Sequence record: PX436236.1
Reading direction: 5' to 3' (one strand)
Origin: a phage
DNA: 64,000 bases
The notes under the pieces are model-generated. The model was given only the letters and a program-made list of their open reading frames with translations, searched no databases and was not told where the DNA came from. Of this stretch, positions 1 through 38,977 are shown in pieces. The translations under genes and the position numbers were made by a program. How positions within the stretch are numbered: position 1 is the first letter of the stretch; each line of letters starts with the position of its first letter.

Positions 1-384
1 ATAGGCTTCTAAGAACGAACGAAGGTGACGTTGAGCTTCAGCAACACCAGCACGGTCGAATTCGTCGATAACAATTACCTTACGTTTACCTTCGATAGAT
101 TTGGAAGATGCAAAACGAGTAAGTTCATTACGAACGAAATCAATACGGCAGTCGGAACCGTTAACAAAAAGCATATCTGAATTTGTATCAGCACACAATG
201 CTTTAGCTACGGTAGTTTTACCTGTGCCTGGTGAAGCAGAGACTAGGATAATGTTAGGGATTAGACCCTTATTAACAATGGCTTGGAGGGTTTCTTTATC
301 ATGCGCCGGCAGAATACACTCAGATAAAGTACCTGGACGATATTTCTGTTCCCACATGAATTCGTTATTGTTTACTGTAAGCAT
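1..384 (-). CDS. 44: Clamp loader subunit gp44 (AAA+ ATPase), N-terminal part only; gene runs past the window start
   Basis: Minus-strand ORF from ATG at 384-382 (MLTVNNNEFMWEQKYRP...) with Walker A SPGTGKTT; no stop before position 1; matches T4 gp44 N-terminus from memory. Confidence 0.85.
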   Translation of the reverse strand, partial: MLTVNNNEFMWEQKYRPGTLSECILPAHDKETLQAIVNKGLIPNIILVSASPGTGKTTVAKALCADTNSDMLFVNGSDCRIDFVRNELTRFASSKSIEGKRKVIVIDEFDRAGVAEAQRHLRSFLEAY

Positions 385-22183: not shown

Positions 22184-22462
22184 TTATAGCTTTTTAAGCT
22201 TACGACAATAAGAATAGAACACGTCGTTAAAATTATATTCAACCCAATTCCTCTGTATAGGCGAGGTAATGGAAAGCATATAATGCGCTTTAATTAAATC
22301 CATCCCGTTTTTATTAGGACACTCTTTATTATTAGCATTATACGTCGCTGCTACAACCTCTATCTCTCTTTTGTAAGCCACATCATCCATGATAGGCGAA
22401 AGAACAATATAAGAAATAGCCACAGCGAACGCTAGAATTAAAATCTTTGAATTTAGGTCCAT
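22184..22462 (-). CDS. Small signal-anchored protein
   Basis: 92-aa ORF with N-terminal hydrophobic segment. Confidence 0.35.
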   Translation of the reverse strand: MDLNSKILILAFAVAISYIVLSPIMDDVAYKREIEVVAATYNANNKECPNKNGMDLIKAHYMLSITSPIQRNWVEYNFNDVFYSYCRKLKKL

Positions 22463-22469
22463 AATACCC

Positions 22470-23042
22470 TCAACTCGTTATTTCTATCCAGTGCTTCCTG
22501 CACAATGACACGTAAGAATCGTTGCCACCTATAGAAACTTGGGCGCCGTCCTTAATTGCGATACCATCCTGGACCCTAGCAGTCATAGTAGCTTTACGGC
22601 CACAATGGCACACACCTTTGTACTCAACGAGTTTATCTGCCGTAGCGAGTAATTCAGCAGAGCCAGGAAACAGTTTACCCTGAAAATCAGTTCTTAGCCC
22701 ATAGCACATAACCGGAACATTATAATTGTCTACTATCTTTGCCAGTTGTTTTATCTGTGCAGGTTCTAAGAACTGTGCTTCATCCACAAATACGCAGTGG
22801 ATATCTTTTTGAGATTCAGCCCAACGATAGAACTCGTATAGGTCCATATCCGGAGTCACGGCATTAGCCTCTTGACTAATCCCTATACGAGACGAAATGC
22901 TATGGCTTGATTCTCTATTGTCTATCGCAGGCTTTAAAAGGAGTACGCCCATACCACGTTCTTTGTAGTTATGAGCTGCCGTTAGCAATGAAGCGGTTTT
23001 CCCGGAATTCATCGCCGCATAATGAAAATAAAGTTGAGCCAT
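22470..23042 (-). CDS. tk: Thymidine kinase
   Basis: P-loop AAMNSGKTASLL and C-terminal zinc ligands CHCGRKAT...C; 190 aa. Confidence 0.9.
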   Translation of the reverse strand: MAQLYFHYAAMNSGKTASLLTAAHNYKERGMGVLLLKPAIDNRESSHSISSRIGISQEANAVTPDMDLYEFYRWAESQKDIHCVFVDEAQFLEPAQIKQLAKIVDNYNVPVMCYGLRTDFQGKLFPGSAELLATADKLVEYKGVCHCGRKATMTARVQDGIAIKDGAQVSIGGNDSYVSLCRKHWIEITS

Positions 23043-23051
23043 ATTACCTTC

Positions 23052-23246
23052 TTAAAGACTATTTACATAAGCAATTAATTCATTTTCCTTTTTAGAAAAC
23101 TCATCCTCTTCACCACCTCTCCAATCCCAATCCAGAGAGTTATCAAATTCACATTCTATGTTGAGTTCCATAAGCTCATGGATAAGCTCAAACAATTTAT
23201 CTTTCTGTTCTTTACTCAGACTCATAACCATTGCACCTTTAAGCAA
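23052..23246 (-). CDS. Hypothetical acidic small protein
   Basis: 64-aa ORF. Confidence 0.3.
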   Translation of the reverse strand: MLKGAMVMSLSKEQKDKLFELIHELMELNIECEFDNSLDWDWRGGEEDEFSKKENELIAYVNSL

Positions 23247-23434
23247 TATTCTTCTACATGCTGTTTACGTTTATTTTTATCTATAAAAATATATTCAACG
23301 TATTCACCGATATACCATTTATCAGTGTTGTGTTGACTTTTTATAGGGCATTTAGTTACTCGTGTTTCGGTCCAGCGTCGAATAATTTCCGCTTTGTTTT
23401 TAGGGTCAAACGGATGCGGGTAATGGGCTTTCAT
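23222..23434 (-). CDS. Hypothetical small protein
   Basis: 70-aa ORF. Confidence 0.3.
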   Translation of the reverse strand: MKAHYPHPFDPKNKAEIIRRWTETRVTKCPIKSQHNTDKWYIGEYVEYIFIDKNKRKQHVEEYCLKVQWL

Positions 23435-23873
23435 AATCTACCACCACTAAATTAATATCAGGAGTAAACAAATTAATCAATTGATAAACCTTGTCCCAAT
23501 CACCACCAGCAATACCACAACCAATGCGAGGGATATAAATTCTTGGTTTAAACAAAAGACCTTTTGCTTGTTGATTTAATTCTATCATACAGTTTACTAA
23601 AGCACCATAATCAAGATTAGGGCCTGGTTCGTATTGGGTATATAAATTATAGCAAATTTGGCCATTATTACCTGTAGCTTGAGTAAACGTGCCAAGTTTT
23701 GCCAAATTGCCTAAATAAGTAGTTTTATCGATAGCGAGAATAGGCGGATAAGCCTTAGCTAATTGTCCAGCTACACCTGAACCCATTGTGTGGAAACAGT
23801 TGCACCCGTGTGCAACATTATTACCTTGAAGAAATAGGGCGACAATATCGCCCTTAATATAATCAATAATCAT
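23406..23873 (-). CDS. Macro-domain-like protein (putative ADP-ribose binding or processing)
   Basis: IDYIKGDIVALF...VAHGCNCFHTMGSGVAGQLAKAYP and later IPRIGCGIAGGDW resemble macrodomain motifs. Confidence 0.5.
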   Translation of the reverse strand: MIIDYIKGDIVALFLQGNNVAHGCNCFHTMGSGVAGQLAKAYPPILAIDKTTYLGNLAKLGTFTQATGNNGQICYNLYTQYEPGPNLDYGALVNCMIELNQQAKGLLFKPRIYIPRIGCGIAGGDWDKVYQLINLFTPDINLVVVDYESPLPASV

Positions 23874-24226
23874 TTAGAGTTTAATCCTCGGTTGTAAGAG
23901 TCAACGAGTCTGTCTACCATAGACGCGCACATTTCTTTGTACTTTTTATCAGATGGAATACATTCAGTAACGTTTAGACGTTGCTCGTATCTTTTAGAAA
24001 GAGTTTTCTCTTTCATTCGACGATGCTCTACGTCGTTCTGCCCATCTTTAAAAGCAGCTGTGATTTTTGAACTGAATTCGATAATGCATTCAGTATTACT
24101 CGGATGACAATAATCTTTTGCTGTACGGGTAGCATACTCGACAATTGAATTATTACTATCACCAACTTGTGACGCTAATACTCCCGGAGCAATCAACATA
24201 AGCGCTATAGTCATCTGCTTAATCAT
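23870..24226 (-). CDS. Secreted Cys-containing small protein
   Basis: Signal peptide MIKQMTIALMLIAPGVLASQ; 118 aa. Confidence 0.4.
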   Translation of the reverse strand: MIKQMTIALMLIAPGVLASQVGDSNNSIVEYATRTAKDYCHPSNTECIIEFSSKITAAFKDGQNDVEHRRMKEKTLSKRYEQRLNVTECIPSDKKYKEMCASMVDRLVDSYNRGLNSK

Positions 24227-24766
24227 TTAATACACCGCCTCAAACATCTTTTTAGATTTTAGGTAATTGGCCTTTTCTAGAACTTCAGAAGCATATTTAC
24301 TGCCTGCTTTGGCGTTCCAGCCCGCATTATAAGAAGCAATCGCTTTTCTCAGGTCACCTTTGTGAACATCAATCCAATAAGACAGTTCAATGTAGGCCCA
24401 AGAGGCACTGTTCTGTCGTTTTTGGACCATACGAATTATTTCTTTGTCAGACATCTTCCAACCTACCTGTTGAACACGACTTCTTAACGTAGGCAAGTAA
24501 TTTTGGAACATGCCATAAGCATGGTGCTTATCTTTATTTAAACCCTGATTAATTCCGGCAGATGATTCCTGCCATAGTAATCCGGCCATAATATATCCTA
24601 ATCCTTTTTGATTAGGGTTTTCTTTGAACTTTCCCGACTTTTGGTATTGTTCACCGAAAGCATACGCATAATGTAAATTATCGAGTTGTTCATTACTGAA
24701 AGTAGGCTCTACGCTATGGGCAGACATACTAACTGTCAATAGTAAAGTGGCTAATACTTTTTTCAT
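24227..24766 (-). CDS. Secreted lytic transglycosylase-like protein (SLT domain; Vs.1 position)
   Basis: Signal peptide; LLWQESSAGIN (catalytic Glu context), AYGMFQ and ASYNAG motifs. Confidence 0.6.
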   Translation of the reverse strand: MKKVLATLLLTVSMSAHSVEPTFSNEQLDNLHYAYAFGEQYQKSGKFKENPNQKGLGYIMAGLLWQESSAGINQGLNKDKHHAYGMFQNYLPTLRSRVQQVGWKMSDKEIIRMVQKRQNSASWAYIELSYWIDVHKGDLRKAIASYNAGWNAKAGSKYASEVLEKANYLKSKKMFEAVY

Positions 24767-24778
24767 GAGACCTCATTA

Positions 24779-25237
24779 TTAAAGATAGATTACTTTCGTG
24801 CTGGTTTTACCTTCTAAACGTTTAGAGTTAACAAATGCCATACGACATTTAAGGGAATATCCTTTATCAGGATGTTTACGGTCTACAGTCATACCTAGCC
24901 ATAAGGTTTTATCGGTAATTTCGAGACGCAATGGGCGATACACTTTACCAGGGACAATTTCGGATTCTACATCAGGTAGAGGTTCCTGGATTAAAAATTC
25001 ATGAATTTCTTTAACATGGTTATGGAGTTGCTTGAATAAAGCAAAAACGTATTTTTCGTCGATTTCACGTTGGATAGCACGGTCCAACAAGTGATTAGAG
25101 TACTTAATAAAGAAGGCTGGGACTCCGCTCTTGATGGCGGCTTTTTTGATGGACGTATTCAGTTCACGGAATTCGGTTTCGAACTGACGACGTAATTTAT
25201 TGCGGCGGATGAATACTTCTGAATTAATTTCTGACAT
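24779..25237 (-). CDS. regB: RegB endoribonuclease
   Basis: 152-aa ORF ...EVFIRRNKLRRQFETEFRELN...HLLDRAIQREIDEKYVF...LEITDKTLWLG; T4 RegB-like. Confidence 0.85.
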   Translation of the reverse strand: MSEINSEVFIRRNKLRRQFETEFRELNTSIKKAAIKSGVPAFFIKYSNHLLDRAIQREIDEKYVFALFKQLHNHVKEIHEFLIQEPLPDVESEIVPGKVYRPLRLEITDKTLWLGMTVDRKHPDKGYSLKCRMAFVNSKRLEGKTSTKVIYL

Positions 25238-25254
25238 TTTGTAATCTCCTGTAG

Positions 25255-25294
25255 TTGATAGGTCTATAGTACCACGTCTACAGGAGATGTAAAC
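25255..25294 (-). promoter_or_regulatory. PeSL-type early promoter/stem-loop upstream of regB
   Basis: GTTTACA-N16-TACTAT; inverted repeat TCTCCTGTAG/CTACAGGAGA pairs the spacer with the regB SD. Confidence 0.5.
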
Positions 25295-25298
25295 TGCT

Positions 25299-25508
25299 TT
25301 ATTCTTGGAATGGGGTAAGTTTTCCAGCAGCTGAACAAATTTCTACCAGTACAGGGTAAAACTCTTTCACTTGTTCAAGGCGTTGGGCTGCATACTGTAC
25401 TTCACCTTCTTCGAGACAAGCCATTTGGTCGTCAAGCAAGTATTTGTGGTAGCCAGTACAGGCTTCACCGATGATACGCTGGAAATCTTGTAAACTTTCA
25501 ATTTTCAT
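25299..25508 (-). CDS. Hypothetical small protein
   Basis: Start MKIESLQDFQ at 25508 with GAGGAAAAA RBS. Confidence 0.35.
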   Translation of the reverse strand: MKIESLQDFQRIIGEACTGYHKYLLDDQMACLEEGEVQYAAQRLEQVKEFYPVLVEICSAAGKLTPFQE

Positions 25509-38820: not shown

Positions 38821-38895
38821 TGGTATCCCGCCCTGGGATCGAACCAGGACCGCAAACTTAGAAGGATCGTATGCTATCCATTACACCAGCGGGAC
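38821..38895 (-). tRNA. tRNA, probable Arg (anticodon UCU)
   Basis: Cloverleaf on minus strand: acceptor GTCCCGC/GCGGGAT, T-arm CCTGG-TTCGATC-CCAGG, anticodon loop CTTCTAA, encoded CCA. Confidence 0.7.
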
Positions 38896-38900
38896 GTAGT

Positions 38901-38977
38901 TGGTGACCCAGACCAGATTTGAACTGGTAACCTTTCCCTTATGAGGGGACTGCTGCTAACCATTGAGCTACAGGGCC
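38901..38977 (-). tRNA. tRNA with anticodon CAU (Met or Ile2)
   Basis: Acceptor GGCCCTG, D-arm TAGCTCAATGGTTAGC, anticodon loop CTCATAA, T-loop TTCAAAT, encoded CCA. Confidence 0.7.

Follow-up and report, generated by a model that had tools for sequence, protein, structure and literature searches.

A Dhakavirus orthologue of T4 tk.4 (adfM) encodes a stand-alone macrodomain with a predicted glutamine-type active site

We analyzed a 64,000-nucleotide stretch of sequence record PX436236.1 (the window) from a QL01-like T-even phage of the genus Dhakavirus, in which a 155-aa open reading frame occupies positions 23406..23873 on the (-) strand and constitutes an orthologue of T4 tk.4, also called adfM. 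A sequence-only reading of this DNA had described a 155-aa macrodomain-like ORF between tk and regB, and both the ORF and the motifs quoted for it were confirmed, with the exact strings present in the translation of 23406..23873: GDIVALF at residues 8-14, AHGCNCFHTMGSGVA at residues 21-35 and PRIGCGIAGGDW at residues 115-126. Its placement between tk and regB also holds and can be narrowed to the interval directly between tk.3 and vs. Specifically, the block runs, with all genes on the (-) strand, through tk (22470..23042; Pfam TK, E=5e-57), a tk.2-like gene (23052..23246), tk.3 (23222..23434; DUF7202), the ORF for the single-domain macrodomain protein, vs (23870..24226; PHROG 'valyl tRNA synthetase modifier'), vs.1 (24227..24766) and regB (24779..25237; Pfam REGB_T4, E=6e-69).

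The ATG of the macrodomain ORF overlaps the vs stop codon as ATGA (23870..23873) and is preceded, 11 nt upstream, by a putative Shine-Dalgarno element that can be read from the sequence as GAGGA (23885..23889, (-) strand). The start of T4 tk.4 is arranged alike, with CGAGGATT...ATG containing a Shine-Dalgarno element and the same ATGA overlap with vs. At the other end, 29 nt of the ORF (23406..23434) are shared with the start of tk.3, as compared with a 4 nt overlap between T4 tk.4 and tk.3, and disorder is predicted for the C-terminal protein tail encoded by these 29 nt (pLDDT about 46). A promoter and terminator scan of 22300..25500 returned 8 promoter-like sites where 9.7 were expected, and the scan is thus uninformative on expression. 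Regarding the neighboring genes, the vs and vs.1 proteins both have hydrophobic, signal-peptide-like N-termini (MIKQMTIALMLIAPGVLAS... and MKKVLATLLLTVSMSAHS..., respectively), vs.1 has a match to the SLT lytic-transglycosylase family that is below threshold (E=0.0077, 16.2 bits vs 21.3), and the HIDEN-SEQ preprint describes T4 vs as conditionally important in minimal medium. Elsewhere in the window, tRNA-Arg(TCT) and tRNA-Met(CAT) genes lie side by side at 38821..38977 (-), as expected of a T-even tRNA cluster.

The protein encoded by the ORF aligns end to end with T4 Tk.4 (NP_049723, 155 aa), with 82 of 155 residues identical (53%), 4 gaps and E=8e-63, and it matches PHROG 335 at E=6e-67. 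Comparison of the T4 and QL01 annotations with the window ORFs shows that T4 tk.4 has the identical slot between tk.3 and vs, and the HGCN, YTQ and IG.GI..G.W motifs are common to both proteins. However, there are several differences. T4 belongs to Tequatrovirus rather than Dhakavirus, 47% of the residues differ, the second loop that reads GCGIAGGDW here is GAGIGKGNW in T4, and the anti-DarTG2 phenotype discussed below was tested for the T4 allele only. Escherichia phage QL01 (Straboviridae, Tevenvirinae, Dhakavirus) encodes the same protein, with 100% identity, as QL01_104 under the annotation 'hypothetical protein', and Tk.4-type matches are present in 2734 of 50,697 phage records (2372 of these cover at least 80% of the protein), with a range that takes in Straboviridae and many other large myoviruses. 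The window gene is already known as a widely conserved and recently characterised T-even gene. The sequence-only reading was right in calling a macrodomain and missed that the gene is tk.4, which has long been annotated in T4 as an 'A1pp motif' gene. Note that family names vary by record: PHROG 335 uses 'phosphatase' and the T4 RefSeq entry for Tk.4 reads 'phosphatase; contains A1pp phosphatase motif', while others are 'Poa1p-like family protein', 'O-acetyl-ADP-ribose deacetylase (regulator of RNase III)', 'macro domain protein' and 'hypothetical protein'.

The T4 gene has been linked to defense evasion in a November 2025 preprint (bioRxiv 10.1101/2025.11.20.689424), where a T4 transposon library on a DarTG2-expressing host gave tk.4 as the single significant hit and where a clean tk.4 knockout was sensitised to DarTG2, evidence that is purely genetic. 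Because its deletion sensitises T4 to DarTG2, tk.4 was renamed adfM (anti-DarT factor Macrodomain) in that study, which proposes removal of ADP-ribose from DNA and compares Tk.4 with DarG of M. tuberculosis. The hit fits the earlier observation that T4 withstands DarTG2 even without adfA and adfN, the latter being gene 30.3 for a NADAR enzyme with specificity for guanine-ADPr (PMC11825919). The name AdfM was also given independently to gp104 of PhiKZ, a macrodomain of a nucleus-forming phage that removes DarT2-made ADP-ribose from a TNTC oligonucleotide in vitro (Cell Rep 2026, PMC13309987). Biochemistry or an enzymatic assay of any Tk.4-type protein was not found in the literature searched, where the name 'AdfM' is swamped by a journal abbreviation. 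The suggestion of the sequence-only reading that the macrodomain could reverse DarTG action is therefore supported by T4 genetics on an orthologous gene. With this assignment, a function can be given to a gene that QL01 lists as a 'hypothetical protein' and that many phage records call a 'phosphatase', and the AdfA, AdfN and AdfM layers of anti-DarTG equipment in T-even phages gain a Dhakavirus example.

Several lines of analysis bear on the macrodomain fold. Pfam Macro (PF01661) matches the Dhakavirus protein above its gathering score (33.4 bits vs 22; E=4.9e-8), with residues 22-132 aligned to profile positions 2-117 of 118. An AlphaFold2 model built from an alignment of 66 phage homologues has a mean pLDDT of 94.7 and a pTM of 0.89, with disorder limited to the last few residues, and is predicted to form a three-layer alpha/beta/alpha macro fold rather than some other architecture. 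A Foldseek search of the PDB with this model returned TARG1 as the best match (E=8e-10, TM 0.76-0.85), followed by Poa1p, BT1257 and DarG macrodomains. This order, together with the PF01661 match, indicates that the protein falls in the ALC1-like class that includes TARG1, DarG, Poa1p and SCO6735. The two Gly-rich loops that are expected of an ADP-ribose-binding macrodomain are both present, both align with the loops of DarG, TARG1, BT1257 and SCO6735, and both are conserved in the 66 homologues. The first, phosphate-binding loop (M30-G31-S32-G33; 23775..23786, (-)) aligns with VMGKG of DarG and MGAG of TARG1 and has an invariant G33, with M30 and G31 conserved in at least 90% of the homologues. 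The second loop (P115-R-I-G118-C-G120-I-A-G-G-D-W126; 23496..23531, (-)), predicted to bind the diphosphate and distal ribose, is near-identical to PRIGCGLAGG.W of SCO6735 and BT1257; P115, G118, G120 and W126 are invariant, with G123 and G124 conserved in at least 90% of the homologues. We regard it as practically certain that the protein is a macrodomain and the tk.4 orthologue, and the points on which the sequence-only reading had staked its macrodomain call, namely a macro fold and intact Gly-rich loops, both came out in its favor.

When solved structures were searched with the Tk.4 family profile, the best match was BT1257 (E=5e-20), followed by TARG1 (E=6.5e-18), SCO6735 (E=4.5e-17), Poa1p (E=1e-14), M. 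tuberculosis DarG (E=7e-11) and T. aquaticus DarG (E=1e-9). The labels carried by many family members raise the alternative that the protein is an ADP-ribose-1''-phosphate phosphatase of the Poa1p kind or an O-acetyl-ADP-ribose deacetylase that acts on small metabolites. Yeast Poa1p (PDB 6LFQ) is a eukaryotic metabolic enzyme with a second loop that is divergent from that of the phage protein. In the alignment, the residues mutated in Poa1p structures correspond to H22 (Poa1p His23; invariant), T29 (Ser30; variable, with T in 41 of 66 family members followed by V, L and Q) and A122 (Phe152), so that His22 alone of the three probed residues is conserved. The phosphatase and deacetylase labels are inherited from a generic domain name and not from any assay found in the literature searched, and such activities would leave the DarTG2-specific phenotype of T4 tk.4 unexplained. 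Appr-1''-p arises from Tpt1-type tRNA splicing, and we know of no such route in T4 infection. Small-metabolite hydrolysis as the main role is consequently quite improbable, and the database label 'phosphatase' for this family is probably outdated. Still more remote is the degradation of ADP-ribose-derived immune signals such as the gcADPR of Thoeris; the match to the ThsA Macro domain is much weaker than that to the TARG1/DarG/SCO6735 group, and a genetic or biochemical link to Thoeris was not found in the literature searched. None of the alternatives to DarTG reversal that had been offered when the ORF was first read, whether hydrolysis of O-acetyl-ADP-ribose, degradation of Thoeris signals or reversal of modifications made by the phage's own Alt/Mod, gained specific support.

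We next consider the residues of the predicted active site, for which all equivalences given here are sequence and profile alignments and not structural superpositions. The H22-G23-C24-N25 motif (23799..23810, (-)) has invariant H22, G23 and N25 and a near-invariant C24 among the 66 homologues. Asn25 corresponds to Asn22 of DarG and Asn23 of PhiKZ AdfM by hhalign and to Asn27 of SCO6735 by HMMER, while Gly23 takes the position of SCO6735 Val25, a residue that acts through its backbone; mutagenesis of the HGCN-equivalent residues has been described (PMC9411070, PMC13309987). A further segment is N76-L-Y78-T79-Q80 (23634..23648, (-)). A Lys that follows the conserved Thr is the key catalytic residue in DarG (Lys80), TARG1 (Lys84) and PhiKZ AdfM (Lys78), and it is Gln80 that occupies this position here, in alignment also with the essential Gln85 of SCO6735. 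Placement of Gln80 against the DarG-type Lys comes from profile-profile hhalign of the Tk.4 family (probability 98.7%, E=3.9e-16), against TARG1 K84 and the BT1257 Gln from a HMMER alignment of the Tk.4 family profile, and against SCO6735 Gln85 from a HMMER alignment. In single-sequence phmmer searches of the PDB, SCO6735 aligned in two fragments and the BT1257 Gln region was misaligned, which was resolved by the family profile and by a chimeric query (SCO6735 flanks plus the middle of the phage protein) that served solely to display the SCO6735 residues across the middle. A Gln is present at position 80 in 66 of 66 phage homologues. In addition, G118 and G120 correspond to Gly126 and Gly128 of SCO6735, which like Asn27 have been probed by mutagenesis, and the second catalytic residue of TARG1, Asp125, aligns with Ala122 in the family profile.

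The SCO6735 comparison matters since this Streptomyces coelicolor enzyme (PDB 5E3B) cleaves thymidine-linked ADP-ribose from DarT-modified DNA (PMC9411070). In SCO6735 the Q85A change abolishes activity and N27S nearly does so, Gly126 and Gly128 line the site, and a water positioned by the Val25 backbone is the proposed catalytic agent (PMC9411070). The Gln hallmark is shared with Bacteroides BT1257 (PDB 2AFC/2FG1), and the predicted Gln80 active site places the phage protein with this SCO6735/BT1257 Gln-type subgroup of ALC1-like macrodomains. Both of these relatives are bacterial chromosomal genes, in contrast to the phage gene, and SCO6735 is linked to antibiotic production and the DNA-damage response rather than to counter-defense. 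There are also differences at the site itself, where SCO6735 has Val25 in place of Gly23 and a mobile loop after the Gln that is 5 residues longer, in which Lys89 and another lysine contribute to DNA activity (PMC9411070); the loop after Q80 reads QYEPGPNLDY as compared with QHGMKTGSKGAPVRY of SCO6735 and has no Lys. DarG and TARG1 have the shorter loop length too, and the long loop is treated as a peculiarity of SCO6735 (PMC9411070), so not necessarily as a feature that defines the subgroup. Human TARG1/OARD1 (PDB 4J5S) resembles the phage protein as a single-domain enzyme that also reverses thymidine-ADPr on DNA, but its Lys84/Asp125 catalytic dyad is Gln80/Ala122 here. Conservation of N25, Q80, G118 and G120 together favors SCO6735-type catalysis, rather than the lysine type of DarG and TARG1, as the most likely one for the phage protein. 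A practical implication of the Gln80 site is that the catalytically dead controls are Q80A or N25A and not a Lys mutant, and the site bears on the prediction of substrate range as well. Beyond the literature found, the single point added here is that the T-even AdfM active site appears to be the Gln of SCO6735 and not the lysine of DarG.

Taken with the T4 genetics, these features lead us to propose, with a probability of roughly 0.7, that the protein is a stand-alone ADP-ribosyl glycohydrolase of the ALC1-like class that uses Gln80-type catalysis to reverse DarT2 thymidine-ADP-ribosylation of phage DNA. By analogy with characterized relatives, we infer that both this protein and T4 Tk.4 would be active on thymidine-ADP-ribosylated DNA. 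In the proposed sequence of events, host DarT2 would act upon infection to ADP-ribosylate thymidine N3 in single-stranded phage DNA at TNTC-type motifs and so block replication, for which background is given in PMC11825919. The two Gly-rich loops of the phage macrodomain would then hold the ADP-ribose, Gln80, fixed by Asn25, would position the distal ribose, and a backbone-held water would start the reaction. Cleavage of the ribose-thymine N-glycosidic bond would release ADP-ribose and restore the base, such that the macrodomain may serve as the phage's own 'orphan antitoxin'. We counted against this catalytic reading the identity of only 53% to T4 Tk.4 from another genus, and a loop after Gln80 that is 5 residues shorter than in SCO6735 and has no counterpart of its Lys89, a residue of importance for the DNA activity of that enzyme.

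Protection need not be purely catalytic since SCO6735 also inhibits DarT by direct interaction (PMC9411070). A mainly non-catalytic mode, in which DarT2 is bound and blocked or the ADP-ribosylated DNA is shielded, draws on the in vitro inhibition of DarT by catalytically dead SCO6735 (Q85A), DarG (K80A) and TARG1 (K84A), which was strongest for SCO6735 (PMC9411070), and on the fact that the T4 tk.4 data that support a DarTG2 role are genetics only. Against such a mode, the SCO6735 catalytic residues are invariant in the 66 phage homologues and Gln80 is present in 79 of 80 bacterial relatives (the best 80 of at least 480). These invariant residues argue for catalysis, as a pure binder would not need them. 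The phage protein is also without the C-terminal DarT-binding domain of DarG. We therefore regard a mainly non-catalytic mode as improbable and retain glycohydrolase activity as the preferred reading.

A second question is whether thymidine-ADPr DNA is the main substrate, as opposed to Glu/Asp-linked protein ADPr, uracil-ADPr or other RNA ADPr, or the products of the phage's own Alt, ModA and ModB. Related enzymes do have broad ranges, with SCO6735 and TARG1 also de-modifying PARP1 E988Q (PMC9411070) and with TARG1, DarG and SCO6735 all reversing uracil-ADPr on RNA (PMC13036486); T-even phages are, moreover, rich in ADP-ribosylation biology (PMC9503650). However, tk.4 depletion in the T4 screen was specific to the DarTG2 host, where it was the only hit. 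Alt and Mod modify arginine, and to our knowledge no cleavage of arginine-ADPr by TARG1-class macrodomains has been described. As for RNA, the literature describes the adenine-ADPr that CmdT places on mRNA as irreversible, and CmdTAC provides a robust defense against T-even phages despite their tk.4. A different main substrate is consequently unlikely, if somewhat less so than the purely binding mode considered above, while it is plausible, by analogy with these enzymes, that other ADP-ribose activities exist as side activities alongside the proposed action on DarT2-modified DNA.

The resemblance to DarG raises the possibility that the protein is itself a DarG, a candidate assignment that we rejected. 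The score against the NCBIfam DarG model (NF048014) is 20.6 bits vs a cut-off of 250 and covers model positions 3-138 of 338 only, and the PADLOC DarG match likewise covers model positions 3-142 of 329. Gln80 replaces the catalytic Lys80, unlike the Lys80-type DarG macrodomain structures that were compared (T. aquaticus 5M31/5M3E and M. tuberculosis 5M3I), the C-terminal DarT-binding domain is lacking, and the neighbors are tk.3 and vs. A tblastn search of the 64-kb window for darT with P. aeruginosa DarT2 also gave nothing significant (best E=0.73). Thus, the protein would, by analogy, act like the macrodomain of DarG without being DarG.

Orthology with PhiKZ AdfM was rejected as well. PhiKZ gp104 is likewise a phage-encoded stand-alone macrodomain that counters DarTG2, but it is imported into the phage nucleus, has only 20% identity to the Dhakavirus protein (pairwise E=0.001) and has other PDB neighbors. 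Specifically, gp104, which is Lys-type (K78), matches DarG at E=9e-25 and has no BT1257, SCO6735 or TARG1 match at E<=1. The low identity and the different match pattern indicate that the two 'AdfM' proteins are different lineages of one fold class, and the name now covers two non-orthologous phage macrodomains, the Gln-type T4 Tk.4 and the Lys-type PhiKZ gp104. The Gln-for-Lys site and the lack of orthology to PhiKZ AdfM count as useful refinements, not discoveries, and leave the general picture unchanged.

Bacterial relatives with the HGCNC / YTQ / GCGIAGGDW signature are numerous, with at least 480 confirmed stretches in many phyla. The best 80 of these have 32-43% identity and come from Rhodobacteraceae, Desulfobacterota, Verrucomicrobiota, Planctomycetota, Bacteroidota and others. 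Note that these 80 loci were chosen by patterns that contain H22, N25, G118 and G120 but not Q80, so that counts of the former four residues are biased and the Q80 count given above is alone independent. Within 3 kb of the same best 80 of at least 480 relatives, tblastn with one P. aeruginosa DarT2 query found no DarT2 homologue better than E=1.7, a result of limited sensitivity because a single query was used and DarT is divergent. As no DarT2 homologue was detected near these relatives, the result suggests that the ancestors of Tk.4-type proteins may have been stand-alone macrodomains and not part of a toxin-antitoxin pair. A broader scenario, to which we give about even odds, is that T-even phages recruited a stand-alone Gln-type (SCO6735/BT1257-like) macrodomain with a lysine-independent, water-mediated mechanism and not a copy of DarG, that chimalliviruses (PhiKZ) recruited a Lys-type DarG-like one, and that the T-even branch may share the broader substrates of SCO6735. 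If separate recruitment is true, then the anti-DarT2 'AdfM' function would have arisen at least twice from different ALC1-like branches; if the SCO6735-like substrate range is true (uracil-ADPr RNA, Glu-ADPr protein), then protection would extend beyond DarTG2.

Finally, we observed a strong, terminator-like hairpin, AGGGCGAT-ATT-GTCGCCCT (about -13 kcal/mol; 23836..23854, (-)), in codons 7-13 of the macrodomain ORF. The 20-nt AAGGGCGATATTGTCGCCCT is identical in T4 and in Escherichia phage PE37 (NC_054929.1) despite an overall protein identity of only 53%, and in Krischvirus GEC-3S the loop differs while the 8-bp stem is still perfect; the hairpin is absent in Karam-, Jiaoda-, Marfa-, Slopek-, Tulane- and Tegunavirus. 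Either conservation of an RNA or DNA element or simple codon coincidence for KGDIVAL could account for it. PE37 is a Tequatrovirus, but it carries a tk.4 that departs from the T4 type and shares 76.7% identity with the Dhakavirus allele. When 281..366 of the PE37 stretch is compared with 23808..23893 of the window, the PE37 DNA resembles T4 upstream of the hairpin and the window immediately after it. This switch suggests that recombination took place at the conserved 20-mer and that adfM alleles undergo mosaic exchange between genera. In the PE37 record the tk.4 CDS is annotated short, at 130 aa, from a downstream start.
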